Shown here: piece by piece, positions 1,861-61,500 of the stretch | Numbering within the stretch: the stretch's first letter is position 1 | Layout of the letters: each line of letters begins with the position of its first letter | Source of the DNA: Magallana gigas | Taxonomy: Eukaryota | Length of the DNA stretch: 64,000 nucleotides | Assembly (NCBI RefSeq): GCF_963853765.1 | Contig: NC_088861.1 | Location: forward strand, 21,356,281 to 21,420,280 | Direction: 5' to 3' | Notes under the pieces: generated by a model | What the model was told of the DNA's origin: nothing | Database searches by the model: none | What the model saw: only the letters and a program-made list of their open reading frames with translations | Made by a program: the position numbers and the translations under genes

Positions 1861-3573
1861 AAAATGGATAATTTCATGACACTCGGGGAATGAAGGGGTT
1901 TTTACTGCAAGATGTGGCAAAAATACTGTGTTTTTTTGTATATAATGTTTAATAATCTTCTCAAGGTCTACTTACTAATAGAATCTGATTGCACATTTAG
2001 AAAGATGAAAGAATCTGTCAAATTTAAGTAACCAGGAAAGCCTTTTCAACCATTGAGCAAGAGTTCAGTCTTTAAAAAAAGGGGGAGGGGGTACTGAAAC
2101 GGTTAAAAGTGTTATCTTTCATTGCTTGTTTATGAAATAGGTAATTAATGTAAATTGTGTACTTAAGAAGTCCAATGATTAAAAGAGTTTTACATGTATT
2201 TTGTTATATAAAACATAACAAAACAGAAAGTTTTTGTAGATTTTATTAAAATATTTATAGAGAGAGTTGTGGATAGTAAGAAAACTAAAGCTTTGTTGGT
2301 AAAAAATTCCATAGAGTGGTGAATATTGAGTGCAGAAGTGTTGCATAGATATAGAATATCACTTTGTTATATTCTGCAAGATTTGTTTAACATGAGAATT
2401 GGTAGAGAAAAAAGTAAAATAAAACCTGTAGTGATAAGTTGCATGCAAGTGGTAAAGTGTCAAGTTGTTTGTTGTCCGATGCTTGACCAAGTGACATAAC
2501 CTGTTAGAATAGCCAGGTGATTAGATGAAAGTTCCTTGCCAGGTTGCAAGCAAAGACAGTTGACGCTAAAATAACCACCAGACAGGTGGAATATCTATAT
2601 ACCGGTATATATTAATTATATAAAATTTTTTAAAAAGTTTTTTCATTATTCGAAAGTGCACTTGCCAAGTGCCATTTCTACCCCTTTGTCACATTCCCAA
2701 TAAAATTTGGATGATTGCAAGATTTCAGGAAGGGGGGGGGGGGGTGGTCATTAACACATTTAAGATTTTTTTTACTCCAGAATGAAGCTTAATTAAATGC
2801 ATAAATATGAGATTCCTTGACAGGACTGTGTACGCGCTAAAGTACAATGTACTAATGTGATCCTTAAGGTCTGTTGGCCTCTTATTAAGCATGAAATCCA
2901 TGCATTTTTTAATAAAATAAATATGTTTGCTATTATTTGTTTGATTCTTAATTAGGACATGCTATTGTAAATTAACCTTATAAAACTAAGTCAACTTCCT
3001 TAAATAGTACAGAAGTACCATTTATTTAAATTAACTAAACAAGATAAGAGATGCATTTGACGAATGTTTTATTTATTTCAAAATTTATAAATCACAAAAA
3101 TATTCAAAATTTCGCAAGAAAATAAACTAGATAGTGGACGATATGAATGTGTGGAAAATATAACGTATATCTAACATGAAAATGTTTATCAAAATTCTAA
3201 TGAATTTATCAAGATATCAAAGATACAGAAATATTTTGACTATAAATGTAAAGTAAATAGTATTTTAAAATAATCTACAATATTACACTTAAATAATCTC
3301 TTACATATTTTATTTAAACGAGAATGTATAGAATAAATTATTCTGAAAATTATATTTCTTGGTTATGTAATTCAAATATACGTAATAATCTCACAATTGC
3401 AAATGGCAAAGTTGGTTAACTAATTAAAGATAGTGAAAAACATCAAGATACACTTACAAAAACACACTTGAAAGTTAATACTAAGAAATCATTATAATGT
3501 TTCATTCAACACTCTTACAAAACAAAATTGGTGTCAAAGAAACAAATTATTTTTGGATAACTCCTGGGAGAGT

Positions 3574-3681
3574 TTACTGATTTTGTCCTACAAGACCACT
3601 GGCTGTGTCAAACAGATTGACAGGGCTGTTGCCATCAGTGATCAGAACGCTCTCCAATCCAAGGGCTTTCAACATATTTAC
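3574..3681 (-). CDS. MVP: Major vault protein (MVP), terminal coding exon ending in a TAA stop; encodes [35 protein letters not shown]
   Basis: Minus-strand acceptor ttttttttag|GTAAATATG in phase 0. The translation aligns with the human MVP C-terminus ([32 protein letters not shown]) recalled from memory. The stop is the reverse complement of 3574-3576. Confidence 0.7.
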
Positions 3682-3851
3682 CTAAAAAAATAATTGTTAT
3701 TTCAAACACAATTTTGCAGAAGTGATTAACACACATTTCAGTTTATGTCTGTAATAAATGCTTTTCCATGATGAGTTTACATGAACAGCATTTGTAATGG
3801 GAGTCTGATTCTTTTTCAAGTTTACATGGTGTTTAAAATAATTATAAAAAC

Positions 3852-5282
3852 AAGAGGCCCAGGGGCCACATCGCTCACCTGAGCAACAATTGCCTTAATT
3901 CTAAATCAAATTAGCATTTCAGTATCAAAATATCTTGACAACTAAGTACAGTATATCTTACTAAAACAAATTGAAAATCTGCCAATTTTTTCCATCTCTT
4001 TTTTTTTTGGTAAATACCAAGCCCCTTTTGTTATTCTACCTGTAAGAAGATTTTTCTCTATTCCTATGTACCCCCCCCCCCTCCAAAATTTCGTGGCCCC
4101 ACTTTTCTCTCAGGAATCATGGTTTCATCAAACTTAAATCTGCATAACCTGTGCTTTCACACTAAGTACTGAGTTTTGGACCGAAAACTTTCCCAGAATA
4201 TTTTTAAAGATTTTCTCTATATATTCCTATGTAAAAGTTCAAACCGCCATCAAAGCCCTGCCCTATCATTAGGGACTGATTTTGCACACTTGAATTTACA
4301 CTACCCGAGGATGCCTCTACACAAGTTTAAGCTTTTCTGGCCAACTAGTCTTTAAAAAGAAGATTTTTAAAGATTTTCTCTATATATCTATGTAAAAATT
4401 CATCCCCCATTGTGGCCTTACTGTACCCCTGGACTGTTATTTAAACAAACTTGAATCTATACGATCTGGGGATGCTTCAACTCAAATGTGGGCTTTCATG
4501 GCCTAATAGAAGATTTTTAAAGATTTTCTCTATGTATAAAAACTATCCCCCATTGTGGCCCCGCCCTACCCCCAGGTACCATGATTTGAACAGACTTGAA
4601 TCTACATTATCTGAGGATGGTTACACGCCAATTTGAGCTTTCTTGTTTTTGAGAAAAAGATTTTTAAAGATTTCCTCTAAATATTCCTATGTAAAACTTG
4701 ATCCCCCAATTGTGTCCCCACGCTACCCCCGGTGACCATGATTGTAACAAACTTAAAACTACACTATCTGAGGATGCTTCCACTCAAATATAAGCTTTCC
4801 TGGCCTGATAGTTTTTGAGAAGAAGATTTTTAAAGATTTCCTCTATAAATTCCTATGTTAAACTTGATCCCCCCTATTGTGGCCCCACCCTACCCACAGA
4901 GACCATGATTTGAACAAACTTGAATCTACACTACCTGAAGATGCTTCCATTTTAATTTGAGCTTTCCTGGCCTAATAGTTTTTGAGAAGAAGATTTTTGA
5001 AAGATTTTCTCTATATATTCATATGTAAAACTTGACCCTCCCCTGTGGCCCCTCCCTACCCGCGGTGACCATGATTTGAACAAATTTGAATCTACACTAC
5101 CTGAGAATGCCTCAACACAAGTTTAAGCTTTTCAGGCCGAATAGTTTTTGAGAAGAAGATTTTTGAAAAATACCAACAAATTTTCAATAATTTTCCGTGG
5201 CCCTTCATTTAAATAAACTGGAATCCCCTTTACCTAGTGGTGCTTTGTGCCAAATTTGGTTGAAATTTGCCCAGCGGTTCTT

Positions 5283-5313
<31 letters not shown>

Positions 5314-5336
5314 ACGACGACGACAACGACAGACAT

Positions 5337-5373
<37 letters not shown>

Positions 5374-5395
5374 TGGCTCAGGTGACCTAATAATG
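3852..5395 (+). mobile_element. Composite non-autonomous element (Helentron/HINE-like satellite carrier): head 3852-4190, a 160-bp satellite array 4190-5160, and a tail 5160-5395 ending aagctcacttgagcctttggctcaggtgacctaa
   Basis: The same head-array-tail architecture recurs at 25955-27915. Head-only and tail-only copies occur elsewhere. The tail carries a 6-bp-stem hairpin, tgagcc-ttt-ggctca. Confidence 0.6.
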
Positions 5396-5507
5396 GCATT
5401 ACCTTAAATATATATACTTCTAATGTACAGTGTAATGTTGTTTAGCTTTAATGCTTCTTATGGTTCTGAAAACTCCAGAGAAATGAAAAAATTATAATCA
5501 TTTTTAC

Positions 5508-5588
5508 CTGATTTGCTGGACCTGCAGTTGCAATGGCAGCCAATACATTTCCTCCTATAGTTGAAATCATATCCTTAAACTTCTTTAC
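5508..5588 (-). CDS. MVP: MVP exon (81 nt, phase 0) encoding VKKFKDMISTIGGNVLAAIATAGPANQ
   Basis: Acceptor tttaatatag|GTAAAG and donor AATCAG|gtaaaa. It aligns with human [27 protein letters not shown]. Confidence 0.7.
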
Positions 5589-5807
5589 CTATATTAAATG
5601 AATTTGTTGTACCTTCGTTATTGTTTCATGACCATGGTTTAAAGGAATTAAGTTGTCACAAAATGTTATTTGGAATATACATAATAATTCCGTGTAATTG
5701 TTTTCTGCACTTTATTCCTCAAAACCTTCTAATACAATTGATTACAAATTGAAGATTGAAAAATATATGAAATTTATCTTGCTCTATTTTTACTTATTTA
5801 TTCAAAC

Positions 5808-5888
5808 CTCAATATTTGTCATTTCCCTTTCCTTATGAATTTCTAGTCTGTTCATATTTCTCGCATAATCTAGTTCTTGTTTTCGTAG
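5808..5888 (-). CDS. MVP: MVP exon (81 nt, phase 0) encoding LRKQELDYARNMNRLEIHKEREMTNIE
   Basis: Acceptor ttgttctacag|CTACGA and donor ATTGAG|gtttga. It aligns with human [27 protein letters not shown]. Confidence 0.65.
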
Positions 5889-7367
5889 CTGTAGAACAAA
5901 AAGGTTTAACACATAATTTTACAAAATAAAATAGTCAGAGATGTTAAAAATTATATTTGCATAATTCAAAAAGTCTTTCGAGAAAAAAGGCAAAAATAAA
6001 AAACTCATGACACAATTTGCCAATAAATAATTTAATTGAACTTAAGAACACCGTATAACAAATAAAGATATTGAAAACTCCAATTACATGTACATGCATT
6101 CTCTCTCACATTGTTTACTCAGGATTTGAGTGCCAAATTCCGATTGAAGTAAAGTTAAATATCATGAGCTAAATTTTTTTTAAACAACAGTATTCTTCAA
6201 ATGAAAATCTTTCGCCATAACATTTGATATCTTTATTATTCTATGGAATTAGACTTAAACAAAAATAATCGTTTGGTAAAACAGAGGAAATTTAAGTGAA
6301 GATTTTATCTGTTAGTCAATAGTCACATATAATGTTTAAATATTTTCTTTTGGTTTTATCTAGTACCATCTTTTGGATAATTGTGAGGCACATATTGCAT
6401 TTTCACCATTTCAATAAATGGATTTTTCTTTAGGAAAACCTGGTTAAAATGTTTAAAAACTTTGATCATTTACCTTGTATTAATTTCATGCCAGCAAAAT
6501 AAGGACAATATATTTAGTTCATGACTATGAATGTTTTAGTGTTATCATTATTCAGTTTTTGTTAAATTACCGGGTAAATCAAATGTTGGTGGAGTTCGCA
6601 AAATTGATAGAAAAAATTCCGACTGGGATATTTTTTAAAAATTGGTTCTCAAAACCTAACTATAATTCTTGGTATCTAATTAGCCACACTGCCCTTTATT
6701 AACAGTATTTCAATTTTAAAGAGTTAATTTGTATGTAATATTTTCACAATTAAGAAAACCTTAATCACATTGTAAAATTTTAAAGGATTCTTTTTCAATT
6801 ATCAAAAAAATATAATACAAAGGCCATTAACTCAAAAAGTTTTTAGAAGGTTAAAAATAACACTACAAATTTCTATAACATACAACATATGGTATTTCAT
6901 TTTCATCAGTGGGATTTTTTCGCATTCTGAGTAAACGTAATTCTTAAGTACGAAAATGCTATCATTTATTGTATATTTGAAGTTTAAATATTTTTTGACT
7001 AAATATAAGACAAAATATAGTCACTTTGTCTGCTTTTGTATACATGAATTTTTGTATTTTATTTGGTTAAATAAAGTGTACTTGGAAGGATAGTGCCCTC
7101 TGTTGAACTTGTACAAAATAATCTAAAATGCACATTTTTAGGCATTATAATTTTACGAAGTTTATACTGAACACTAAAAGTCTTTTAAGTCAAAAAATGA
7201 GGGGAACGCAATTTAGCTTCTTCTTACCATAGAGATGCGTCACACCAAATGGTAACAATTGGCCTTGTAGTTTTCAAGGAGAAGTTGAAAATGTATTATT
7301 AACGCACAACGCATGACGACGGACGAAGACCAATTGCTAAAATAACCAATTGCTTAAAAAAACGCAC

Positions 7368-7638: not shown

Positions 7639-7857
7639 CTTCAATCTCGCTCTCACACTCAATGATAATGCGCTCGGCCTGAGCTTGGGCCTCTGCTTTA
7701 GCCTGTCCAGAAGACTCCACTGCAGCAGTGACGGCTTGAAGTTCCAAGAGTTTACATCGTTCTTTTTCAGATTCTTTTTCATTATAGAGTTTTTGCCTCT
7801 CCAATTCACCCCTGGCTATTTGTTCATTTCTGGCTGCCTCATGCGATGCTGCTGCCT
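7639..7857 (-). CDS. MVP: MVP exon (219 nt) encoding [72 protein letters not shown]
   Basis: Acceptor aagttcaatag|AG GCA and donor GATTGAAG|gtgagt. The alignment to human [70 protein letters not shown] is strong. Confidence 0.75.
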
Positions 7858-8100
7858 CTATTGAACTTTAATATCAAAACATAATTGATGCTCTCTATTA
7901 TTTTCTTAATACATAAATCTCTTAATTTTTTTGTTGACACTTTTGTTACGTATATCCATTCCAAACCATAATCAGATATCATCAGTTATTTGCTTTACTG
8001 GGATATGCTAAATCAGTCATCAGCTTCAAATAAACATACGAAAGAAGTTCCTTATAATATTTATGCTGATAAAATACCATTTGGGAGAAATAGAATAAGT

Positions 8101-9497: not shown

Positions 9498-12400
9498 TTT
9501 AGAAGAAAATATGACATCATCGGCTTTGATTTTCGACAACAAAACATGTTATGGAAAAAAGAGTGAAGTACTAAGGCTTTATTGTATCGCTGTTTATAAG
9601 TCTCTGACATAGCTTTTTTAAATATTTGCATTTCTTCCAATTAAGATAGAAAAGATTAAACTTGTTTACCCCTGGTCCCTAAAAACCTTAATTGGGTAAC
9701 GCAAGAGAAAATCATTATATTGTTAGGATATATAAACGTATTATACCAAATCTAGCTTTATTAACCTTTCATAAAATAGCTCTCATTAAAGGGCTATAGA
9801 TAGAAGATTTTAGAGCTCTTTGATCCCCTAATTTAAGGGGCCAGTCCCTTTTTCCTAATATCAAATGAAATGACATTTAATTCTAAACACATTTTGTCAA
9901 CAAGTGTTTAGAAACTCGTTACCGTTCTGGAGATATATGAGAAAGAAGGTTTTAGGGGCCGATCCCTTATCTCCTTATAGGGGCCGTTTGACGAAATGTT
10001 GAAGGTTGCATACTGTTAAGAACATCATTTTGAACAACTTTTCTTGTGTACTGCATTTCATAATATTTTTCCTTTCTGAGATCTAGGTGATCAAAATTTT
10101 GGACTTTTAGCCCCTAAAAACCCCTAATTACAAAACACATGATAAAATCATTACATTGCTTGAATACATAAATGTAAGATAAACACATTTGCTTCTATAA
10201 CCTTTCACAAAATATCTCTTGGTAAAGGACTACAAATTAAAGACTTTGGAGCCCGTTAGTCCCCTTATTTTAGGGGCCAGCCCCTTTTCCTTGATATCAA
10301 ATGAAAGGTCATTTAATTCTAAACAAATTTTGATCAACAAGTGTTTAGAAATTTGTTACCGTTCTAGAGATATATGAGAAAGAAGGTTTAAGGGGCCGAT
10401 CCCTTAACTCCTTATAGGGTCCGTTTGACGAAATTTTGAAGGTCGCATATTGTGAAGAACATAATTTTAAACAACTTTTCTTCTGTACTGCATTACAAAA
10501 TATTTTTCCTTTCTGAGATATGGGTGATCACAATTTTGGACTTTTGGCCCCTATAAACCCTTAATTACGTAACACATAATAAAATTATTACATTGCTTGG
10601 ATATATAACTGTGAGATAAACATATTTGCTTCTATAACATTTCACAAAATATCTCTCAGTAAACGGCTACAGATGAAAGACTTTTGGGCCCTTTTGTCCC
10701 CTAATTTGAGAATCCAGCCCCTTTTTCTTGATATCACATGAAAGGTCTTGTAAATATAAAAATTTTTTACAATACATGTTTTAACAAAATATTTTTCAGA
10801 AGAGAGATAAACAAAGAAAACCATGAAAAATTATGACTTTTTTTAGTCTCAATTTTCGGGACCAGACTAGCTTTAACGCCTTTTGAGCATGACAAATATG
10901 AATGCCAAATGGCACATCTACAATTTATTGTCTACAATCCCTGAAAGTTTGAACTCAGTATCTTTTACCGTTTAGGAGGAGGTCCCTGGACAAGCCGACC
11001 CTCTGAAAATCGCTAAAACGTCACTATCTTGAGAACGGAAATGACGTCATCAAAATAAAAAAATGTATATTAAGTTTAGATCAATATCAATTTGATCTGA
11101 AAGTTTCATGAAAATCGGCCGAGCCGTTTTTGAGATATCGCGGGCACAAAATTTGTAAGAAAAAAAAAGAAAAATAATAACTAGACTCTTGTTGCTATAG
11201 CAACAAAAAGGTCTTCCGTTCCTCATGTATAAATCTGTACAAAAGATCCATTTCTCTTGTAAACAGAAAATGGATATTATTTATACTAAAAAGGAATTCC
11301 CAAGAAATAAACAAAACAAAAAGACAAAACTTCATTTTGAGTACTTTCTGTGACGACCGGAAGTTACGCCGGATCATACAAAACATAGTAAACATATCTT
11401 CATACATTGCCTTGTATTTCCTCAAATTTTGGATGTTCAAGTTTTTGTTAGTTATAATATCTCGTTAAGAAATGGTTTTTGTCTCGGGACCGGAAAGGAA
11501 CGAACGGAAGTGATTAAGAAATTGAAAATACGTATTTTAGTACATTTACCTATGATAAGTTATTGTTCATCACATTGAGTAATATGCTAAAAAAAAATTC
11601 TAATTTAAAAAAAAAAACCCTTTTATTGCTTTTATTTTATCACTTCGAGTGAAAACCGGAAGTGACGTACGACCAAATGGAACCCGTTAAACACATGTTT
11701 GTTCAAATGTCCATTATCCATAAAAGTTTTCTGTCTTGATCTCTTAAAGTTTCTGAGATCTTGGGGTAGTTTGTTTTTTAAAAAGAAGGCTACCTGAGAT
11801 ATTTGAGATGTCTCAACGGAAGTAGAACTTTTTTGTTTTTTTTCACCATCTGTGGATGACCTCCTGTATTTTTATAACTAAAATGTTACTTCCATGCCAA
11901 ATAACCAACATATTTTTAAAAAATCAGAATTTGGTGTACTTTCTGTGACGACCGGAAGTTACGCCGGATGAAACAAAATAGTGTTAACACGTGTCCATAC
12001 ACAGGTCTATAATCCTACAAAGTTTGGTTGTTGAAGTCGTTACCGTTTTTGAGATCTCGTCGATATAAGGTTTTTTGTCTCGGGACAGGAAACGGACAAA
12101 CGGAAGTGCTTAATGAAATTTAATTTTTTTTTATCTTGTTACTTTCCTATTTTACATTATTATTCATCGAAGTAGCTAAAACTATCAAATAAAAACAGTT
12201 TTATGGATAAACAATTTGATTTGTTTGAACTCTTCCGCTGTGGACCAGAAGTGACGGAAGACAAAATGAAACTGTTTAAACACATCTCCAATCAAATGTC
12301 TATAAGTAGTGAAAGTTTCGTGTCTTAATCACGTACAGTACCTGAGAACTTGCGGGTACAAAATATGTTTTAAAAAAGCTTCCTGAGATAATCGAGATAT

Positions 12401-15400
12401 CTCACCGGAAGTAGATTTTTTTGGTTTATTTTACATTGTATAGATGACATATGAAAGGATCTATACTAATATCTTTATTCTATGGGAGATAAATTAAATA
12501 TGTAAAAACAAAAAAAATTGAAGTGCTTCCGGTGACGACCGGAAGTTACGCCGAACAAAACAAAAATGTTTAAACACATCTCCAACTATAGGTCTATCAT
12601 CCCAGAAAGTTTGGATGTTCAAGTGTTTACCGTTTCTGAGATCTCGTTGGTACAAGCTTTTTCAACGCGGGACAGGAAACGGACGACCGGAAACGATTTT
12701 TGACAAAATGAAAAAAACGCCTCGAGATATTGTCATTTTCTTCCATTCCAGAAAATTTCACATAAATCTATCCAGTCATCTCTGAGAAATCTTGTGGACA
12801 AAAACTGGGAAAAAAATAATAATAACTAGACTCTTGTTGCAAAAGCAACAAAAAGGTCTTCCGTTTTGATATACATGTATCAATTTAACTGTAAGACATT
12901 GCTTCTCTCACATAAAAAAAAGTGGATATGATAATTATTGTGAATGATATATCCAGACGTTACTTACATGTAAAACAACGAGAATGAAAAAAGAAATCAA
13001 TTTCTGAAGTACTTTCTGTGACGACCGGAAGTAACGCCGAACTAAACAAAAATGTTAACCATTTGTACAATCATATGTCAATCTTTCCTCAAAGTTTTGT
13101 TGTTCACGTCTTTGCCAAATCTAAGATCTCTTTGAAACAATATTTTTTGTCTCGGGACCGAAACGGACGAACGAAAGTGATTAATAAAAACAAAAGGTGG
13201 TATTTCTCGTACATTTGCTTAATGTACATCACTGTTTATCAGGCTAGATGAAATTCTAAGAAAGTCAGTTAAACTTGTTAAAAACAGGATTTGTTTGAAC
13301 CCTTCCGGTAAGAACCGGAAGTGACAGTTGACAAAATTAAACCCGTTAAACACATCCCCAATCAAAATTCTATCAATCATGAAAGATTCGTGTCTCAATC
13401 ACTTACAATGACGAAAATCTCGCGGACATCAAATTTGTAAAAAGGAAAGCTGCATAGAGATATTTGAGATATCTCACCGGAAGTAAAATTTATTTGCCAA
13501 TTTAACATTATATAGATGACATATGTGAGATTGTATACTGATATTTTCATTTTATGTAAAATGAATAAAACAAATTTTTGAAGTGCTTCCGGTGACGACC
13601 GGAAGTTACGCCGAACAAAACAAAATAGTGTATACACATGTACATACATAGGTCTATCATCCCACAAAGTTTAATTGTTCAAGTCGTTACCGTTTTTGAG
13701 ATCTCTAGAAATCAAGGTTTTTTGTCTCGGGACAGGAAACGGACAAACGGAAGTGCTCAATGTAAATTGTATTTAATATGTTTTTGTACTTGCCCTTTTT
13801 ACTTAATTTTTCATCGACTTCACTACAAATATCAAAGGAAAACAGTTAAACTGATAAACAGCTTTATTTGTTTGAACTCTTCCTGTGTGGACCGGAAGTA
13901 ACGGAAGACAAAACGAAGTCGGTTAAACACATCCTCAATCAAATGTCTATCATCTATGAAAATTTTGTGCTTTGATCACTTATAGTTTCTGAGATCTCGT
14001 TTGTACAAAATGTGTTTCAAAACAGCTACCTGAGATATTTGAGATATCTCACCGGAAGTAGAATTTTTTCGTTGAGTTAACATCACATAGAGAACCTATG
14101 CATAGATTTATACTTATGTATTTATTTTATGGAAAAGGAATTTTAAGCGAAAAAGTAGTTATTTTTGAAGTGCATCCGGTGACGACCGGAAGTTACGACG
14201 AACAAAACAAAATAGTGTGAACACATCTACAACTATAGGTCTATCATCCCACAAAGTTTGGATGTTCAAGTCTTTACCGTTTCTGAGATCTCGTTGATAC
14301 AAGTTTTTTCAACGCGGGACAGGAAACGGACAAAACGAAAGTGCTCAATCTCAGTTGTATTCAATATTTCTTGTATACTTACCCTTTGTACTTCATTTCT
14401 CATCCAGCAAACTACGAATATCAATGGAAAAGATTTAAACTGATAAACAGTTCGATTTGTTTGAACTCTTTCTGTGTGGACCGGAAGTGACGGAAGACAA
14501 AACGAAACCGGTTAAACACATCTTCAATCAAATGTCTATCATCCCTGAAAGTTTTGTGCTTTGATCACTTATAGTTTCTGAGATCTCGTTTGTACAAAAT
14601 GTGTTTCAAAACAGCTACCTGAGATATTTGAGATATCTCACCGGAAGTAGAATTTTTTGGTTGAGTTAACATTGCATAGATAACCTATGCATAGATTTAT
14701 TCTTATATATTTTTTTTTATGGAAAAGGAATTTTATGCGAAAAAGTAGTTATTTTTGAAGTGCTTCCGGTGCCGACCGGAAGTTACGACGAACAAAACAA
14801 AATAGTTTAAACACATCTACAGCTATGGGTCTATCATCCCACAAAGTTTTGATGTTCAAGTCTTTACCGTTTCTGAGATCTCGTTGATACAAGCTTTTTT
14901 AATGCGGGACAGGAAACGGACGACCGGAAATGATTTTTGACAAAATGAAAAAATCATCTCGAGATATTGTCATTCTCTTTCATTTTAGAAAATTTCACAT
15001 TAATCTATCCAGCCATCTCTAAGAAATCTCCTGGACAAAATCTTGGAAAAAAAAAAAATAATAATAACTAGAGCAAAGCTCGTTGCAAAGCAACGAGTGG
15101 GTCTTCCGTTAATGTCGGAAGTAAAGCTGGAAGTTCCTGTTAGAAGCAGAGCTCTTAAACCAATAACAAGAGTAACTAAAATAAAAAGACGAAAAAAATC
15201 GAATTATTCCTGGTACGACTTAACAAAATCCGAATGATTTTAAGTACGACTTAACAAAAACCTTTCTGATTTCAAGAACGACTTAACAAAAAAATCCGAA
15301 TGTGTCCAAGTACGACTTAACAATTATTTTTGGTACGAGTTAATATTACTTTGAACATTACGCTATTTTTTAAACCAAGGACGCGGAATAAAAATTTCCG

Positions 15401-15779: not shown

Positions 15780-15869
15780 AATAATAATAATAATAAAAAG
15801 AAACAATAGAATAACAAGAGTGTCTTCCGTTGGAAACGGAAGACCCTAATAAAAAACATTACAATCACT

Positions 15870-15907
<38 letters not shown>

Positions 15908-15922
15908 AACATTACAATCTCT

Positions 15923-15974
<52 letters not shown>

Positions 15975-16100
15975 GTACGAAAACAATAAGGTCTTCCGTT
16001 GGAAAACGGAAGACCTTAATAATAAAGAAGAAAAGTGAAAAAGAAACAATAGAATAATAGTAGGGTCTTCCGCTGAAGACGAAAGACCCTAAAAACATAT
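15780..16100. repeat. Minisatellite of ~57-60 bp x 5, each unit holding a perfect 13-bp-stem hairpin aaggtcttccgtt-ggaa-aacggaagacctt
   Basis: Units lie at about 15810, 15870, 15930, 15985 and a diverged unit at 16055. The spacers between units are identical, so this is not a CRISPR array. Confidence 0.8.
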
Positions 16101-18235: not shown

Positions 18236-19100
18236 CACGGACATTATTCTCTATTATACCACGAACGTCATCAGTAAATTATCAGATCAGAAATACCTTT
18301 TTGTCTCCCATTGATCATGAAAGTACAACTTCAAACCATAAAAAGTTTTAAAACCATGTCAATTTCACGTGTTTGTTCCAGTCAAAACGATGTGTATTGC
18401 CTCAAATGTTCATTTTTAAGAGATCAATGCGGCTGTTTCTATGACCTCCCTAGCACTTTTTCACTGCGTGTTTTTAAAATAAAATATATAACGTGTAGTA
18501 GTAATAATCGTAAATTGCCCTTAAAATATTAGGAATATAACTCAAAGGTATTTTATAAATAAGTGAAGAGTATTAAAATCCCAAGAAAAAATTCTGTCGT
18601 CTGCACGTGATTCCTTTGATCGATACACATCACCTCGGCTTTTATATTTCAAAACAACATTCTCAACCTCAGAGCTTATTCTGCAACATTCACGATAACT
18701 CATACTTTATTTCTTAAATATACCACAAATGTCATCAGTAAATTATCAGATCAGAAATACCTACTTTTCTTGCACTGATCATGAAAGTACAACTTCAAAT
18801 TGAAAAAGTTTTAAAACTTTGTCATTTTCAAGTCCTAGTTCCAGTCAAAACGATGTGTATTGCCTCAAATGTTTATTGTTAAAAGATCAATGCGGCTGTT
18901 CCTAGGACCTCCTCCCTAGCACTTTTTCACTGCGTGTTTTTAAATAAAATATGTAACGTGTAGTAGTAATAATCGTATTAAATTGCCCTTAAAATATTAG
19001 GAATATGATTCAAAGATATTTTATAAATAAGTGAAGAGTATTAAAAATCCAAAGAAAATTTCTGTCATCTGCATGTGACTCCTTTGATCAATAGACGACT
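18236..19100 (+). repeat. ~480-bp tandem duplication (copy 1 about 18236-18716, copy 2 about 18716-19100) directly upstream of the SWIM/YqaJ ORF
   Basis: Both copies contain tcatcagtaaattatcagatcagaaatacc...ccagtcaaaacgatgtgtattgcctcaaatg...cactttttcactgcgtgtttttaaa...gtagtagtaataatcgta. Confidence 0.8.
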
Positions 19101-19280
19101 TTTTTCAGTTATTTCCCTGAGTAAAATTTCATCCCGATAGGTGTCGCGGAAAACAGCCGCCATTGTAACCGTGACGCTGGATAAACAAACGCGGTAGCAA
19201 CCATTCCCCGGTAACATAAAATTCTTGCTAGCAAAGTTTTGTTATATGAAACTGTATTATATTTTTCGTTTATGTAAATC

Positions 19281-20735
19281 ATGGATAAGAGTCAATGCAA
19301 AAAAGATACTGATCGAATGATTTCTTCCCAAAAAGACGTCAAAACCGGTGAATGGAAGGATGACATTCGTGAGTGGCCACAAGTAGAATATGGCGATATC
19401 TACAATTATTTGATTTTAAGTAGAGCATGTGACGGCGAAAAAATGAAAAATTACAAATCATTGGACAGTTACAATTATTTTAAAAGCGGTTCTGTCGGGA
19501 AAATTCTTCATTTTGTTATTCACAATACAGTTATTCTGAAATCTGAAGTGCGCCCGTCACAAAAAATAAATTCAGAGTTTCACAATGCATGGGTATTCTG
19601 TGATATGATCGGCACAATTCTAAACGGGGGATGTTCATGTATGGCTGGGAACAGTAAAACGTGCAGTCATGTAGGCGCACTTTTGTGGAAAATTGAGCAT
19701 GCTGTAAGGTTAGGTTTTACGGGAAAATCTTGTACAGATGAGCAGATGCAGTGGAATAGGGGTGCGACAAGAAACCTTGAACCAGGTGTTCTTGAAGAGA
19801 TGGACTTTAAAAAACCTAAATATGGCAGTGAGGTTAACAACAATACTGAAAAACCACAAAATACAAAATCTATCTTCCCAATGTTTGTATCACATCAATC
19901 TTTTAAATATTTTGTGGAAAACTCAGAACTTAAAGAATTATTTCTTTTAGAAAATTCACTTTTAAGTAAATCTATGCACGCAAATATAAACAAATCTCTT
20001 TTCGAATCTTCATCCGAGCCTCGTACTGAGCATACAGGTGAACTATCTTGTGAAAAGTGTTGTGCGTTTTATAACAGGTACATGTACATTAAACTTAATG
20101 ATGCCCAAATTCAATCGTTATCGATGGCAACAATTTCACAAAGTGAATCTGAATTGTGGCACAACAGTAGAAAAATAAGAATAACTGGCAGTAGTGCTCA
20201 CAAGGTTCCCGTTCGTGACACTACAAATAGTGATAACTTCTTAAGAGAACATATGTACCCTTCCTTCACATCAAACAAATTTACTAGACATGGACAAGAA
20301 GGTGAAGAGCCCTGGCTAAGTGTTTCCCCAGATGGAATAGTAACCAATGCTGATGGTTCAAAATGTCTTTTGGAAATTAAATGTCCAATACTTAAGAATG
20401 ATCAAACACTTGACAGCTTATTTACAATTGGTAAATATGATGTTGTGAAATCCTTGCAAAATGGTACATTATATGTTAAGCATAACAGTTCAAGGGGCTA
20501 TTACCTTCAAATGCAGTTAACTTTGCATGTAACACATATGCAGCTGTGCAAACTTGTTATTTGGACAACTAATGAATACAAGGTCATTGATGTACAATAT
20601 GACCAACAGTTTTGTGAAGCAGCTATTTCAAGACTATGTTGTTTTTACTTCAACAAACTTTTACCAAGAGTAGTTGATGACTTTGAATGTGGCAGATTTA
20701 AAATTAGTAAAAAATATGTTAAATTTTCTAACTGA
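19281..20735 (+). CDS. Intronless 484-aa ORF with a SWIM-type zinc finger (GGCSCMAGNSKTCSHVGALLWKIEH, CxCx(n)CxH) and a C-terminal YqaJ-like viral-recombinase / PD-(D/E)XK exonuclease domain (RITGSSAHKV ... VSPDGIV ... LLEIKCP)
   Basis: The full-length ORF is given in the supplied track. Domain calls rest on recalled family motifs. The ORF lies antisense inside an MVP intron and has no predicted introns, so it is probably transposon-derived or domesticated. Confidence 0.6.
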   Translation: MDKSQCKKDTDRMISSQKDVKTGEWKDDIREWPQVEYGDIYNYLILSRACDGEKMKNYKSLDSYNYFKSGSVGKILHFVIHNTVILKSEVRPSQKINSEFHNAWVFCDMIGTILNGGCSCMAGNSKTCSHVGALLWKIEHAVRLGFTGKSCTDEQMQWNRGATRNLEPGVLEEMDFKKPKYGSEVNNNTEKPQNTKSIFPMFVSHQSFKYFVENSELKELFLLENSLLSKSMHANINKSLFESSSEPRTEHTGELSCEKCCAFYNRYMYIKLNDAQIQSLSMATISQSESELWHNSRKIRITGSSAHKVPVRDTTNSDNFLREHMYPSFTSNKFTRHGQEGEEPWLSVSPDGIVTNADGSKCLLEIKCPILKNDQTLDSLFTIGKYDVVKSLQNGTLYVKHNSSRGYYLQMQLTLHVTHMQLCKLVIWTTNEYKVIDVQYDQQFCEAAISRLCCFYFNKLLPRVVDDFECGRFKISKKYVKFSN

Positions 20736-21399
20736 TGCATACACGAGTATACACATGTACATGTAGTTAAATGAAGTTTTTGATGTCTCAGACTTAATGC
20801 TGAAATTATACAGTCAACTATTTTTCAATCTGTGTTAATTATTTATTCCTGAACATGAAGAGTATTCAAAATAAGTTCATTATCACAACATCCTCTTATA
20901 TTCAATTAAACCCAATTACATGTTTAAAAAAATATTTTTGATGAAGAATTTAATTCACATCATATTAATAAAGACTTATAACAATAGTCTTAATTCAATA
21001 TATGGCATTGACTTTGCCTAAAATACATTATTTAGCATTTGTCATATTATGAGCAGATATACTCAAGGAATCATGAACTGGACCTTAATTAGACTGGTAT
21101 ATAAAACCTAATACAAATCTATTATTCATGTTTCAACTTTGTGTCATTTACATCAGTGAAACCTTCAAATATTATCATGCATCATTTACTGTTACATCAC
21201 TGAAACTTTCAAATATCATCTGTCACTCATCATCATCATCTTTAATAAGATCAGATCGCAGATTTACCAATGCAGCACAAACAATCAAGTAGTCACTGAG
21301 TTTCTTTGCAGAGGTAACTGGAACTACCTGACTTAGTATGCGGAACACCTTTATCATAAAGGATATAAGGATTTGCGAATTACTGTGATTTATTTATTA

Positions 21400-22200
21400 T
21401 CTATTAAACATGTGACCTGTTCCAAAAACTTCACCATATCCAGCATCTGAAACCTATGGCTCAGACTCAGCATTCAAGCCTGGCAGGTGCATCAGTATCA
21501 TAAGACGCACCGTACTATTTCAAACTTGCATAGTTAATTAAACTGTAATATGAATGAATCACAGAGGAAGCTTCAGATGCAGAGCTTGATCTCCATTATC
21601 AAGGATGCTAAAAAATATATCTTAGTTATTACAGGTCCTAACTTCACCTCACTTGAAAGGATGGTGTGTCTTATGATACAAATGCACTTGACAGGCATGG
21701 ATGTTGAATCTGATGCTGGAGCAGGTTAAGGTTTTAATTGCTAGTGCCCTCTGATGATGATATCTTAGTTATTACTGGTCTGAACTTCACCAAACTTGCA
21801 TGGAGATGCGTCTTATGTATACTGATGCACCTGACAGGCTTAAATGCTGAATCTGAGCCATAGGTTTCGGATGCTGGATGAAGTTTAGTTTTTTTTGGAA
21901 CAGGTCACATGTTTTATGGAAGTCTGGTGAAGTTAGGACAAGTAATAACTAAGATATAATCATCAGAGGGCACCTGTTTCAAAAACGTTAACCAGCTCTA
22001 AAAACCTTAACCTCCTCCAGCATCCAAAACCTATGCTCAGATTCAGCATTCAAGCCTGTCTGGTGCACAAGTATCATTAGACGCACCATCCATAGAAGTC
22101 CGGTGAAGTTAGGACAAGTAGTAACTAAGATATAATCATCAAAGGGCACCTGTTTCAAAAACTTTAACCAGCTCTAAAAACCTAAAATAAGGTATCTAAC
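21400..22200. repeat. ~140-150-bp satellite units in a mixed inverted and tandem arrangement. Arms 21401-21515 and 21800-21912 are reverse complements. Tandem units run 21912-22200, and reverse-oriented units 21590-21800
   Basis: Unit: catccaaaacctatgctcagattcagcattcaagcctg.c.ggtgca..agtatcat.agacgcaccatc....aagt..ggtgaagttaggacaagta.taactaagatataatcatca.agggcacctgtttcaaaaac.ttaaccagctctaaaaacc. Confidence 0.7.
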
Positions 22201-23404
22201 AGTATTTTTAATATATATTTGCATTTCACATGAAAAAATGTCGTTTACACAAAATCTCCCCCTTAGCCAAGTTGGTAAGGGGGAGATTCTCCCACATAGC
22301 AGCTTTGAATGGTTAACAGGTATGCTAACGCCTCAGTTTTTATATTTCAAAACAATATTTCTCGACCTCAAAGGTTATTCTGCAACATTCACAAAAACTT
22401 GTACTTAATTTCTTAATAAGATCCATTGCATTTTGCTTGAACTTATCACAGTTCAGAGAATCAACTGACATCATGAATTTATGACAAATCAGTTGTTACA
22501 TACACCATTATAAAATCGGTATTTACGTTTAGAAAATACTTTTGGGAGAGCTTGGTACCTAAAGTTATTTTTAGTAACAGATACTTAGCGTCAAAACACA
22601 GGTGTAGGCGAAATAATGGGAATAGGCGCTATACCTCTTTTACACCTAATTTGTCTACATTACAATGATTCATAATTTTCGGAAGTGTAGAAGAAGAATA
22701 AATTATTTTTTCTTTTAAATTGTCAAATTTTGGCTATTTTGGTCCAGCCTAAAGGGTCCCAATGTAGCAAGAGCAATGAAACTTACAGTTTATGTTCATC
22801 TTACCCTCTAACTACATTTGAAAAGAGTTTTCCTTGAATTTAAAAAAACAATTAAATTATGTGACAGAATTCTATGCAGCAATTTTCTGATGACCCTACA
22901 TTTTGCATCAATTCAATTCCTACAGTATGCTAGGAAATGATTGTGAAATGGGAAATCAATTTAATATGGTCTGCTATATATGCACAGAGAAGTGACTCCC
23001 ATAGATGAAGTAAAAGAAGAATTAAAAAAAAAAAGAGTTACACAGTTTTCTAAAACAACCAGGTAATAAAAGATTACAGAGCCCACCCCACATTGTGAGA
23101 ACTATTTGAGACCATTATTATTATATTTATCCAAATCAAAGTGGACTATATATACATGTGTATCATAATATGATGAATGTGAAGAAAAATGTAATGTCTT
23201 GTTATTTTAGTAATACAATAAACAGTTTTATTATTCTATTGGTATCATATAAAGATGTTCTATTTTCTTTACAACTTTGATAATCAAGATCAGGCTCAGA
23301 ATCTGAAGCTTGCTTTATGTATCATATCCACTGTTATATGAAATAAATGCAATTTGTATAGTCAGAAATAGTTGGAATTTACTGATCGTTTGATTTTGAC
23401 ATAC

Positions 23405-23505
23405 TTAGTGGATATCTCTATTGCCAGTTGCACAGATTTACTGAGGCTGTCTCTCATCTTGGCATCCACTGGTTCTATACTCTGAATGTCCATGCTGCTT
23501 AAAAT
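23405..23505 (-). CDS. MVP: MVP exon encoding [34 protein letters not shown]
   Basis: Acceptor tcttattctcag|ATTTTAAGC in phase 0. It aligns with human [38 protein letters not shown]. The 3' boundary is uncertain: the only canonical GT donor (ACTAA|gtatgt) leaves a phase that does not fit the acceptor of the exon at 7857. Confidence 0.55.
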
Positions 23506-52453: not shown

Positions 52454-54845
52454 ATTTACTTTTACTACACACGAACTGTACAGTATAAAAATATTCAAAT
52501 AGTCAAAAGTTTTCCAATATAATTGTATCAACTAATGTACCAGGTATGTCACATCTGTACATGTATATGTTGTGAAAGTAAAAAATTCAATTAAAGAAAG
52601 ATAAAAAATAAAGTCATCATCAACGTATATGTATGCATGTTGCATACAGAAAGTCGGGAAGGGGTGGCTTTACAGTATTGCAGTGTACTTGACAGTCCGG
52701 TATAGATCAGATTAGTTTATTTTAGGCAAAATGCATCTGTCAGGTAAAATTAAATTTTTAAGTGTGTTAAATCATAGTTTATAAACAATTTTTAATTAAT
52801 CTGTGTACCTGTGTATATTCTGTATTTGTTTGAAATATTTCCTTATTATTTTTCTATCTGTGATTTAACAATTATAGCTGCGTGGATCAAATTACATGCT
52901 TAGCCTGTTGTTGGGCAATATTTCTATCTACAAAGTTGGTCAGTGTTATCATATTACAATGTACTAATAACATGCATTAGATAAGAGTAATCAGGGGATT
53001 GATACCTACAGGGGGGAGTCTGGTATTTATGTTGATTGTTTAGAAGAAGAAGCAATTGTGAAGATGCTTGATTAAGAAGCTATTATTTTCATTCAAATCT
53101 ACTCCTACCTTTACTATTTGTACTGGTGTGCTATTATGGATTAATGCAGTAAGTGTGTATTTGCCGAGGTACATAACTACGTAACTTATGAGATACTTTG
53201 TGAACTGAGTTTTGTGCTTACAAGAAGTCATGGGGCCTAAAAGAGCGTCCCGACCCGCGCCATACAATCCAGACTTGCCAGTGAATTGGACGGCAGCAAG
53301 ACTAAAGGAAGCTTTGGATTCTCGCGGAATCGCATACTCCTCTAACGCACGAAGATCGGCGTTAGTTGGTATGTACAGAGAGTGAAGTCCCAGGTTCTAT
53401 AAAAAGAACTTCGAATGATAGTGCGCGTTCCCATGATCCTTCACACCAAAACATCAATGGCGACTCGAATGATAGGCAATCCCCTGATGCCCTACACCAA
53501 AACAACAATGGCGATCACAGTGTACTAATCGATCTCGAGTCGAAATTATCTTCAACAGTGCAGTCGCTGCAACAAAATGTAGTACATCTTACATCACGAG
53601 TGAACTCGTTGCATGCAACTGCTATAAATCCATCGTCGACTGCAAGGAATAATGATGAACCAGGAAGCCAAACTCCGGCGAATTCAACTACAACCACAAT
53701 GAATCCCGAGTCTTCTTTCACACTGGACACGGCCTTTGCCCTATTTCCGCGGCAGCTGCAGGATCGCCAACACAGGGCCCGGAATTGAAGAGGACGAGAT
53801 TCGGATTCGCAGCAGAATCTCTCCTTCTGGTAGAGACCATCTCGCCTCATCTGTGCCTCCAAATTACATCAGGTAAGGATGTCAATTTAGCATCCTTGTT
53901 AATACCATATTTCTCTCCCCCTGACGAAAAAGATGATAACAAGAAGCCGGATAAACGACTGCAGAAGTTGCTAAACATCGGTGAGTTCATTCAAGCTTTC
54001 GGAAAATACAAAAATATAATGTGTCCGTATATAAGCATATCCCCAAAGAAGACAGGAGTTAGATTTGTACGATAGGGATATCATTGACATGGCTACCGGC
54101 TACACAGGCAATGGGTTCTACGAATATCATCGTCAATTCAGTCTTATGGCCGCTTCACATCTTAAGTATAATAACATTCTCATTGACTAGTCTGTGTGGA
54201 ATAACACTTTATTTTGTAATTTGTTTGCGAATGCCAGACCGCAGTCATGTGCAACCTGCAACAGTACGCTGCACTCTACAGGCTTTTGCCCTATTACCGA
54301 CAAAGTTAGGGATAAGAGAAATGGGGACATGGATTTTTATGGACGTCGGAGAGAATTTCATGAAGGTAGAGAAATATGTAACAACTTCAATGGCTTCAGA
54401 GGCTGTCACATACCTAGATGCAAGAACGCCCACATCTGCATCAGTTGCAGAGGAGACCACTCTTAACACAATTGCAGCTCAAAAAATCCCAGCAGCCCCA
54501 CACAAATGGGGCTTTCAAAAAGATGTAACATCCAGTTTCGATAATAAGTAACAACTCCCATCAACATAGACAGTCTTCAAAATCTTCTACAACATCATCC
54601 CGACACCCAATTTACAGAATATCTTATGAATGGTTTATGTTTTGGCTTTCATACTGGCTTTCAGGATCTTCCAAAGAATTCTCTGGAATGCAAAAATCTA
54701 AAGTCAGCTTCATTAAACTCGGACAGCGTTACAGAGATCGTAAACTAAGAACTAAACCTGGGTTACTTGTATGGTCCATTATGCTATTAGACTATAATTA
54801 AATTATGCGGGAAAGGAGCATCACTTATTAAAACCGACATTACTG

Positions 54846-55635
54846 ATGCCTTCAATATCATGCCTATATCATATGAGTTATGGCCATATCATGGAATTAA
54901 GTGGGATGATAAATACTATTTTTTCAAGCGCCTTGTCTTTGGAAGCAGATCAAGTCCAAAGATCTTTGATGCCCTGTCTTCCGCTGTGTGTTGGATTGCA
55001 GAGAAAAAATACAAGATATCATACCAAATGTGCTGCACCTGTTGGATGACTTCCTAGTTGTGGTCCCACTATTTGATGATGCTCATAAAGTGATGGAGAG
55101 ACTCCTGGGGATACTGGTATTTAGAACCCTCGGGATTCCTCTATCGGAGAAGAAAACCAAAGGACCTTGTACAGAACTAGAATACCTTGGGATAATATTA
55201 GACTCCTGGAACATGGAAGCCAATTTACTGTCGGAGAAGATTGATCATATCTTATCTATCGATAATTCCTTCAAAACACGCAAATCATGTACAAAGAGAG
55301 AATTGCTCAGTTTGCTGGGACATCTCAATTTTGCTTGCAGAGTTGTTCTGCCAGGTCGATCTTTCATTTCTCACCTGATAGCCTCATCAACCACAGAGGA
55401 GCCGCTTCATTTCCATGTCTACTTAGACAGTTTGTGTGGGGACAACGTTGCTATGTGGTCAGATTTCTTAAAAAGCTGGAATGGAGTGTCCTTTTTCATC
55501 GACGATAACATGACAGTCAGGCTGCGGATATGCAGTTGTTTACAGACGCAACCCTTACATCCTTTGGAGGCTTTTACCAAAATAAGTGGTTTCAAGGAGA
55601 TTTCCCTGACAACATTTCCAAGGAAAACACATTGA
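54846..55635 (+). CDS. Reverse transcriptase module of element 3, split across two overlapping frames (54846-55057 and 54988-55635)
   Basis: F..LVFGSRSSP and LDDF motifs. Confidence 0.55.
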
Positions 55636-57296: not shown

Positions 57297-57720
57297 TTGC
57301 AGTTGGTTTATTCCTTTATGCTCACTGGGACCAGCCCCGAGCGCAATCTGTTCTTGTCTCGAGGCCCGCTGGAGATCAGCCCCGGGTCATGCTTCGTTCT
57401 AATTTATGCTCGCTGGGATCAGCCCCGAGCGCAATCTGTTCTAGTCTTGAGGCCCGCTGGAGATCAGCCCCGGGTATGCTTTGTTCTAATATATGCCCGC
57501 TGGGATCAGCCCCGGGTTATGCTTCATTCTAATTTATGCTCGCTGGGATCAGCCCCGAGCGCAATCTGTTCTAGTCTTGAGGCCCGCTGGAGATCAGCCC
57601 CGGGTATGCTTTGTTCTAATATATGCCCGCTGGGATCAGCCCCGGGTCATGCTCTGTTCTAATTTATGCTCGCTGGGATCAGCCCCGAGCGCAATCTGTT
57701 CGTCTTGAGGCCCGCTGGAG
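57297..57720 (+). repeat. ~60-bp minisatellite in about 7 copies, organised as ~120-bp dimers
   Basis: Unit ccgctgggatcagccccgagcgcaatctgttctagtcttgaggcccgctggagatcagccccgggtatgctttgttctaatatatgc, read directly. The ORFs at 57297-57662 and 57493-57708 are artefacts of the repeat. Confidence 0.85.
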
Positions 57721-58079
57721 ATAAGCCCTGGGCATGGGTTTTGTGTCGTGGGAAGGAATGAGTAGCCCCCAAGCGCCAAACTATTTACATATGTATTTTG
57801 GGTGTTGACAAATATATGTTTATTATTGTTTTATGTATGATTGTATTTCGGTTTGGAGCGTTTGTATTTTTAGCTATACTAAATGTTTGGGTATAAGACC
57901 CAATAAATTTTTTGCTTCCTCTTAACTCTTGTTAATTGTTTATGAACAGATCATTAGTATAGGACTACAACATTGCATCCTCAAATAATTTGATGAAGTG
58001 AAGCCATTAATCATTACCTTTTGATTAAAGTAGAGGTTTATGCATACTAGGTATATTTAGGAAACAATTTAGGAAATTC

Positions 58080-60479: not shown

Positions 60480-61500
60480 AAAGATCTGGTCTACAAAACC
60501 ATGAATTCAGTTTTCCTTTCAGGTGTGTGGGAGTAAAGAAGATAATTTTTTAACATTATATGCATCAACACCTCTTAGCGCTCTACATCCATTTCCGCCC
60601 TGCCCTAGAGTCAAAACCCATACTCCAGGGGACATGAAAATTTAAATTTCAGTAGACTAGAACTTCCTGGTAAACGTAATTATAAGTCAGTTTTTTATAC
60701 AGATGTGTGAGAATAAAGAAGAACATTTTAAAACATATGCATTAACACTATATTGCCATATTGCCCCCCCCCCCCCCCATGTTCTAAACCCCTGACCCAA
60801 GGGCCATGAATTTCACAATTGAGGTAGAGGAGTTAGTGGAGTTATATGGGAGTAGAGAAGATTTTCTAAGATTAAACACATTTTTACTATATGGCCATAT
60901 TGGCCCCACCCTTTAGCCTGAACCCCTGACCCAGGGGTCATGCATTTCACAATTTGGTAGAGGGCCTCATGGTCATCATAACCATGCATTTAGTTTTTAA
61001 CAAATATATATGGGAGTAGAGAAGAGATTTTCTAAAAATTAATACATTTTTACTATATGGCCATATCCCCCCCCCCCCCCCCTCGAGCCTGAACCCCTGA
61101 CACAGGGTCATGAATTTCACAATTTAAGTAGAAGGCTTCATGGACATCATAATCATGTATTTAGTTTTTAACAAATATCTTTGGTAGTAGAGAAGAAGAT
61201 TTTCTAAGATTTAATACATTTTTACAATATGGCCATATTGGCCCCACCCTAGAGCCAAAACCCCTGACCCAGGGGCCATGAATTTCACAATTTTGGTTTA
61301 AGGGCTTCATGGACATCATAACTATGTAACCACTTTTTTCCTCACATGTGTGGGAGTAGAGAAGAAGATTTTTGAAAATTTGGCTATTTTTTTGCATATT
61401 TGGCCCCACATGTGGTGCCCTGGGGGTGGTAGAGTCATGAATTTCACAATTTAGATTCCTCTTACCAAAGAGATGCTTCACATAAAACTTACACCAAACA
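60480..61500 (+). repeat. ~180-bp satellite in about 5 units, each with a palindromic core cccctgacccaggggccatgaatttcacaatt.ggtagagggcttcatgg
   Basis: Units at about 60650, 60840, 61020, 61200 and 61380. The core motif is also present as a single copy at 23815-23880. Confidence 0.75.

Follow-up and report, generated by a model that had tools for sequence, protein, structure and literature searches.

What a long, intronless open reading frame (ORF) joining a zinc-finger motif to a nuclease domain is doing within an intron of a major vault protein (MVP) gene is the question raised by one locus in Magallana gigas. The locus lies in a stretch of 64,000 nucleotides (the window; NCBI RefSeq assembly GCF_963853765.1, contig NC_088861.1, positions 21,356,281 to 21,420,280, forward strand), and coordinates are given as positions in this window. 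A sequence-only reading had described an intact SWIM and YqaJ-like exonuclease ORF between direct repeats, and had proposed either an uncharacterised DNA element carrying its own nuclease or a recently captured gene. We arrive at a more familiar answer. With a probability of about 0.9, positions 19093-22246 are a non-autonomous, internally rearranged copy of a cut-and-paste DNA transposon of the ISL2EU group (PHIS/Harbinger-like superfamily), and the 484-residue ORF is ORF2, the accessory nuclease gene of such an element. The transposon inserted, with a 2-bp target-site duplication, into the second copy of a tandem unit in the MVP intron, where it lies antisense to the host; almost all of the transposase gene has since been lost, and ORF2 is damaged.

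In the passages on the group in PMC4482050, PMC4122938 and PMC9179366, ISL2EU elements are animal transposons of about 4.8 kb that encode a transposase with DDE, HTH and THAP domains together with a YqaJ-exonuclease ORF, end in inverted repeats of 6-259 bp and generate a 2-bp AT duplication. The role of the second ORF is stated to be untested or unknown in the corresponding passage of PMC4482050. The element, its two-gene architecture and its YqaJ ORF have all been published already, and the window copy is ordinary genomic debris. Its extent is about 3154 bp, and its parts are listed below, where P0001 denotes a 506-residue ORF2 protein encoded by contig L001.

19093-19125, plus strand: left terminal inverted repeat and conserved terminal block (AGACGACTTTTTTCAGTTATTTCCC...), where eight copies join.
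19281-20735, plus strand: ISL2EU ORF2 (SWIM-like finger region and lambda-exonuclease/YqaJ-type nuclease), its frame open, damaged.
19632-19670, plus strand: CxCx7CxH motif, a candidate SWIM-type zinc finger (C118, C120, C128, H130), from alignment A1.
20133-20690, plus strand: nuclease domain with the motifs WHxSRKxRITGS, SPDG, EIK and YYLQMQ, from Pfam YqaJ, the profile and Foldseek.
20302-20303, plus strand: 72-bp in-frame deletion (24 residues, P0001 residues 341-364), from the pairwise alignment with L001.
21223-21353, minus strand: transposase remnant, the stop codon and last 42 codons of a DDE_Tnp_4 transposase, from tblastn and identity with L001.
21354-22190, no strand assigned: unrelated dispersed repeat rich in inverted repeats (repeats I1-I11, D4, D6 and D7).
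22191-22246, minus strand: right subterminal segment and right terminal inverted repeat, reverse complement (T)AAACGACATTTTTTCATG, from a gapped motif and alignment to the left end.

The sole long ORF of the region runs, as had been noted, for 484 uninterrupted codons without introns on the plus strand (19281-20735). Its nearest relatives are proteins of 506 residues, P0001 (93-98% identical; 56 member sequences) and P0002 (80% identical), and all 506 residues of P0001, used as a tblastn query, are covered at 19281-20735. More distant ORF2 relatives occur in Mytilus, Mercenaria and fishes, and a profile search puts the family at 2499 cluster representatives at E<=1e-30; two homologues carry the label 'SWIM-type domain-containing protein' in UniRef. 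The exact window protein has no record in the gene-call collection and gene-position index in which it was looked up.

The assignment to YqaJ holds. In a Pfam scan of the 484-residue ORF only YqaJ (PF09588) reached significance, at 31.8 bits (cut-off 22; E=2e-7), and 11 of 11 homologues match it too (best E 1e-21), so the ORF carries the domain that characterises the second gene of ISL2EU; the match in the window ORF spans profile positions 84-149 of 150 only, about half of the profile. The motifs GSSAHK, SPDG, EIKCP and CxCx7CxH are all present. In alignment A1, residues R297, R300, I301, T302, S304, D351, E365 and K367 (window numbering) are invariant, and the window ORF retains both the catalytic D...ExK signature and the N-terminal R...ITxS motif of lambda-exonuclease/YqaJ nucleases. 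The ORF2 profile matches lambda exonuclease, LHK-Exo and mimivirus R354 at E=9e-9 to 4e-13, and Foldseek aligns the nuclease domain of intact P0001 with lambda exonuclease and LHK-Exo at TM scores of 0.65-0.73 (E ~1e-8).

For the SWIM finger, the motif stands but the Pfam family does not. C118, C120, C128 and H130 are invariant across the 11 homologues, and in the AlphaFold model the CxC ends a beta-hairpin (strands 101-108 and 113-118) while the CxH opens a helix at 129-143, so that the CxCxnCxH signature sits in the beta-beta-alpha context of a SWIM finger. A beta-hairpin followed by a helix is the topology of the SWIM fold. Pfam SWIM (PF04434) gave no match to the window ORF at E<=10, and among the 11 homologues it gave weak, sub-threshold matches to three, the best at E=0.062.

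The link to a transposase comes from what adjoins ORF2. With a Mytilus transposase as query, tblastn matched residues 517-558 to 21223-21353 on the minus strand (E=1.7e-9). This remnant is 99% identical to L001, in which the minus-strand ORF runs on as HTH_Tnp_4 and DDE_Tnp_4: to the right of the equivalent of 21353, on the opposite strand, L001 encodes a C-terminal 238 residues with both domains (E=6e-48). Similarity of the window to L001 and to a second sister copy, L010, breaks off abruptly at 21353, and no other transposase-like sequence was found in the 64-kb window. That breakpoint was considered as the right end of the unit and rejected, the L001 flank at this point being the transposase gene.

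A transposase gene adjoins ORF2 in the sister copies L001 and L010, in the Mytilus copy L007 and in the metagenome contig L011. In L007, ORF2 (10001-11503, plus strand) converges with a 561-residue THAP, HTH_Tnp_4 and DDE_Tnp_4 protein (12620-14305, minus strand), and inverted repeats ATAGACAC(G/A)TTTTT at 9851 and 14339 delimit an element of 4489 bp. L011 shares this gene order, and its inverted repeats, ATTCACAACTTGCGC, are perfect over 15 bp; its ends were located by BLAST of both ends, a regular expression for the conserved terminus having no match in this contig. The relatives thus have the DDE_Tnp_4, HTH and THAP transposase that defines ISL2EU, of which the window copy keeps 42 codons, and terminal inverted repeats in the range of 6-259 bp are found in the window copy, in L007 and in L011. 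The transposase family counts 1595 matches, and the transposase is 90% identical to a protein of Ostrea edulis. In the Ostrea edulis locus L009, a terminus-like motif at 7100 was set aside, as it falls between the THAP and the DDE segments of the transposase there and has no ORF2 nearby.

One observation concerns L011 by itself. Within its 2097-6104 segment ORF2 is split, with residues 16-333 at 2139-3095 and residues 328-501 at 5580-6086, and about 2.5 kb with long inverted repeats divides the two parts. The split is probably a nested insertion.

The left end of the element is fixed by comparison among copies. Eight copies (the window, L001, L002, L003, L004, L006 and, from Mytilus, L007 and L008) with seven different left flanks share one common terminus, ATA(G/C)AC(G/A)(A/C)(C/G)TTTTTTCA(G/A)TTA; L003 and L004 have the same 7 nt directly upstream of it and may be one locus. 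The flanks of L001 are wholly unlike the window outside 19091-21353. One conserved terminus joined to flanks that differ marks a mobile element's end. The terminal ~35 nt are conserved even across ORF2 families that are only ~45% identical. At the right end, the 64-kb window has exactly two matches to the pattern ACGAC N0-2 TTTTTTCA, at 19095-19107 (plus strand) and 22231-22244 (minus strand), against an expectation of 0.02. Ungapped searches for the inverted left terminus (23-mer with <=3 mismatches; 17-mer with <=2 mismatches) returned none, because the right repeat carries a 1-nt insertion, which the gapped pattern accommodates.

Two further observations were made on these copies. Upstream of ORF2, some 60-70 nt in from the left terminus, families that have otherwise diverged keep a common motif, GCCGCCATT(G/A)(T/C)A (19140-19175 in the window, ~95-130 in L003 and ~9915-9935 in L007), which might serve as a promoter element or bind the transposase. 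In addition, the five contigs L002-L006, from five sequencing runs, encode an identical 506-residue ORF2 (P0002) next to left flanks of at least three, probably four, kinds, a sign that a sister family, some 80% identical to the window copy, multiplied very recently.

The target of the insertion is preserved in the window itself. The sequence-only reading had reported a tandem duplication of about 480 bp upstream of the ORF and direct repeats of about 90 bp on both of its sides. The duplication is real, with a unit of ~464-468 bp and 83-95% identity (spacings of repeat families D1-D3, D8 and D9, 463-468), and the features of the site are as follows.

18247-18710, no strand assigned: tandem unit copy 1, ~464-468 bp, holding the paralogous empty site, from repeat families D1-D3, D8 and D9, BLAST and global alignments.
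18711-19092, no strand assigned: left part of tandem unit copy 2, cut by the insertion, 87.6% identical to 18247-18628.
19091-19093, no strand assigned: left target-site duplication of 2 bp, AT at 19091-92 or TA at 19092-93, from the flank overlap in the empty site.
22246-22248, no strand assigned: right target-site duplication of 2 bp, TA at 22246-47 or AC at 22247-48 (a mutated AT), from the empty-site alignment.
22252-22327, no strand assigned: extra 76-nt segment with a 36-nt palindrome at 22253-22288, from a 76-column gap in the global alignment.
22328-22416, no strand assigned: right part of tandem unit copy 2, aligned to 18629-18717 of copy 1 and continuous with the left part.

Homology of copy 2 to copy 1 ends at 19092/19093. 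Joining the sequence left of 19093 to that right of 22246 yields GATC(A/G)ATACAC, which matches copy 1 at 18618-18628, and the CACA at 22248-22251 carries on the empty-site sequence of copy 1, GATCG-ATA-CACATC at 18618-18631. Excision of 19093-22246 on paper therefore restores the sequence of copy 1, which makes copy 1 a paralogous empty site. The direct repeats also exist (85 nt, 18633-18717 and 22331-22416, 86% identical), but they are the two halves of one split copy 2 and thus mark an interrupted target and not the ends of a unit. An AT borders both ends in the Mytilus copy L007 and in L011. The 76-nt segment is absent from copy 1, lies outside the transposon and adjoins its right end; its 36-nt palindrome, AAATCTCCCCCTTAGCCAAGTTGGTAAGGGGGAGATT, is near-perfect, and the segment may have arisen as a small hairpin element or been left behind by repair.

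The claimed position within the host gene was borne out by two exons found by tblastn, with the human MVP sequence as the query.

23407-23505, minus strand: host MVP exon upstream of the intron, residues 634-666, E=1.5e-8.
7706-7867, minus strand: host MVP exon downstream of the intron, residues 667-720, E=6.5e-12.

These exons (23505-23407 and 7867-7706) are collinear on the minus strand and enclose an intron of about 15.5 kb, so the ORF lies antisense within an MVP intron. In a protein search with the exon at 7706-7867, the named matches were 'major vault protein-like' (two sponge entries), the rest being unnamed fragments.

The description of ORF2 as intact had to be given up. The 72-bp deletion, bordered by TGAA microhomology, removes 24 residues between GQEG and EEPWLSVSPDG that are present in every homologue, and the ORF also carries a 6-bp insertion (two extra residues); the Pfam match to half of the profile belongs to the same picture. 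The AlphaFold model of intact P0001 has pLDDT values of 85-96 over the nuclease domain and above 90 in the deleted segment, which comprises the second half of core helix 331-349 and strand 353-355 and includes the nearly invariant G358. The complete core fold, a helix with a conserved Glu followed by the first core strand, is present in P0001 and missing from the window ORF. L001 is 98-99% identical to window positions 19091-21353, a divergence of 0.9%; 16 of the 20 substitutions fall inside the ORF, changing 12-13 codons nonsynonymously and 3 synonymously (~4:1). Judged from these sequences, the pattern looks as expected for neutral decay. The deletion in the nuclease core, together with these apparently neutral substitutions, leaves a frame that is open yet very probably encodes a broken nuclease, and the product, if made, would very probably be inactive. 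For the same reasons ORF2 is neither intact nor a host gene, whether captured or domesticated.

In the place of the missing transposase gene lies the dispersed repeat. The sequence-only reading had seen a satellite block of inverted repeats downstream of the ORF, and a block rich in inverted repeats does occupy ~21395-22190; it lies, however, inside the element. It belongs to a dispersed repeat of about 840 bp (21354-22190), built of inverted and direct sub-units of ~95-180 bp, of which a second copy is found at 40555-41090, the two being 75-85% identical. The repeat shows no similarity to L001 or L010.

Three other explanations of the locus deserve consideration alongside that of a decayed ISL2EU copy. 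The one favoured by the sequence-only reading, a novel element moved by its own SWIM-YqaJ nuclease and bounded by ~90-bp direct repeats, captures correctly that the ORF is transposon-derived, present in many copies and nuclease-bearing, with direct repeats on both sides. We nevertheless give it almost no credence. The two repeats are neighbouring stretches of a single copy of the 466-bp tandem unit that has been interrupted; the other copies, expected to share the 90-bp flanks, lack them and differ directly outside the ATAGAC... terminus; and complete relatives, with their inverted terminal repeats and DDE transposase, place the unit in the described ISL2EU group, with mobility by a THAP-HTH-DDE transposase. 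That the copy is instead autonomous and currently active is hardly credible. Both termini are present, a divergence of 0.9% from other copies indicates a recently active family, and five contigs encode the identical P0002 beside left flanks of at least three, probably four, kinds; yet the transposase is down to 42 codons, with no other transposase-like sequence in the window, and ORF2 is damaged.

A domesticated or recently captured, single-copy functional SWIM-nuclease host gene in the MVP intron is very improbable as well, despite 484 open codons free of introns and catalytic D, E and K motifs that have been kept. Its nuclease core lacks 24 residues that homologues invariably possess, the ~4:1 ratio of nonsynonymous to synonymous changes against a 99%-identical paralogue fits neutrality, the ORF sits between transposon termini and adjoins a transposase remnant, near-identical copies exist at other loci, and the gene-call collection holds no record of the exact protein. 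A more speculative proposal builds on the decayed ISL2EU copy itself: the truncated SWIM-nuclease may still be made and act on the family, by dominant-negative titration of transposase or ends or as an early host co-option, hence the open ORF2; in broader terms, ISL2EU transposons may bring their own end-resection nuclease in the form of ORF2, which would link cut-and-paste excision to homology-directed repair that refills the donor site. We regard this as a long shot.

Several points weigh against the identification as a decayed ISL2EU copy. No full-length reference of the exact family was recovered, and the transposase was assigned to ISL2EU by domain architecture alone, not by phylogeny of the DDE core. 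Only the inverted terminal motif and the reconstructed empty site identify 22191-22245 as the right end. The flanks overlap by 2 bp in an ambiguous register, either TA on both sides or, in the published register, AT and AC with a single mutation between them. The preference for A|AT|T was not borne out: of 8 left junctions, 6 have a T and 2 an A 5' of the AT, a small sample for a published rule that is a tendency and not a definition. The inverted repeats begin AG/GA and not with the 'usual' GG. The transposase gene may have been replaced through an insertion followed by a deletion, or the repeat may have come in as filler DNA when gap repair was aborted. What ORF2 does, finally, is wholly inferred.

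How such an element would work can be outlined from its relatives. Full-length copies are units of ~4.5 kb in which ORF2 and the gene for the THAP-HTH-DDE transposase converge between short terminal inverted repeats. The window copy would be unable to move alone; at best, because both termini survive, it could be mobilised in trans by the transposase of a full-length copy, and full-length relatives exist in the sample that yielded L001. In Harbinger, as summarised in the relevant passage of PMC9179366, the Myb-like ORF2 protein binds the element ends and imports the transposase. By analogy, an intact ISL2EU ORF2 is probably an accessory factor of its transposase. Its N-terminal zinc-finger region would bind DNA or the transposase, and its nuclease would resect 5' strands at the double-strand breaks left by excision, in the 5'-to-3' direction of lambda-exonuclease-type enzymes; such resection would direct how the donor gap is repaired or how the excised ends are processed.

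Other repeats in the window lie apart from the transposon. A satellite of ~165-167 bp (consensus ...CCCCCATTGTGGCCCCACCCTACCCCCGGGGACCATGATTTGAACAAACTTGAATCTACACT...) forms arrays at 129-1831, 4195-5164, 26304-27666 and 60843-61380, some of them within MVP introns; it seems to resemble the ~166-bp oyster satellite (Cg170/BIV160 type) carried by non-autonomous Helentron-like elements. Between 53000 and 57000 on the plus strand there is a cluster of long ORFs of up to 221 residues, for which Pfam scans gave a weak RVT_1 match alone (E=0.0027, 54791-55054); the cluster is probably a degraded retroelement. Tandem arrays are also present at 15822-16051 (short, with periods of 53 and 63, around the palindrome GTCTTCCGTTGGAAACGGAAGAC), at 57315-57736 (period 43/87/130 bp, GCCCGCTGGGATCAGCCCCGGG...) and at 9762-10747 (period 437 bp, 2.3 copies, 86% identity).

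The locus has little significance beyond annotation: an apparent 'novel nuclease element' is a decayed copy of a known transposon. The practical lessons are that SWIM-plus-YqaJ ORFs scattered through mollusc and fish genomes, often entered as 'uncharacterized protein', are ISL2EU ORF2, and that flanking direct repeats can be merely a split target. The biological question that it touches is what a YqaJ-type nuclease does for ISL2EU, for which the damaged window copy is of no help; intact P0001, P0002 and the Mytilus element would be suitable material.

Comparison with known systems places the copy within a familiar landscape. It agrees with ISL2EU in that its complete relatives carry a THAP-HTH-DDE_Tnp_4 transposase and a YqaJ ORF within ~4.5 kb and short inverted repeats, and in its 2-bp duplication in an A/T context in an animal host. 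It departs from the described group in having lost its transposase, in the foreign repeat inside it, in its deleted nuclease core, in inverted repeats that begin AG/GA and not GG, and in duplication flanks that are not A|AT|T. Two features of the family, the SWIM-like CxCxnCxH finger and the conserved terminal ~35 nt shared across ORF2 families, find no mention in the ISL2EU passages of PMC4482050, PMC4122938 and PMC9179366, and the term SWIM occurs 0 times in PMC9179366.

With PIF/Harbinger elements the family shares the DDE transposase superfamily and a two-gene logic, whereas the accessory protein there is Myb/SANT and here a zinc finger with a lambda-exonuclease-type nuclease, and the target duplication is a 3-bp TWA there and 2 bp here. 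The SWIM fingers of MULE transposases, FAR1/FHY3 and ZSWIM proteins have the same invariant CxCx7CxH spacing; unlike them, the ORF2 finger does not reach the Pfam SWIM model and precedes a nuclease in the chain instead of following a transposase core. The C-terminal domain of intact ORF2 shares the fold of lambda exonuclease (Red alpha), Bacillus YqaJ, LHK-Exo and mimivirus R354, together with their motif set (WHxxR...ITxS, G..xE, SPDG, ExK and YxxQxQ). In contrast to these enzymes, ORF2 is eukaryotic, transposon-borne and fused to a domain of ~250 residues with a zinc finger; no gene for an annealing-protein partner of the Red beta/YqaK type was seen in the element, and the nuclease activity of ORF2 is predicted from its sequence. 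In the window copy, unlike in this group, the nuclease core is truncated.

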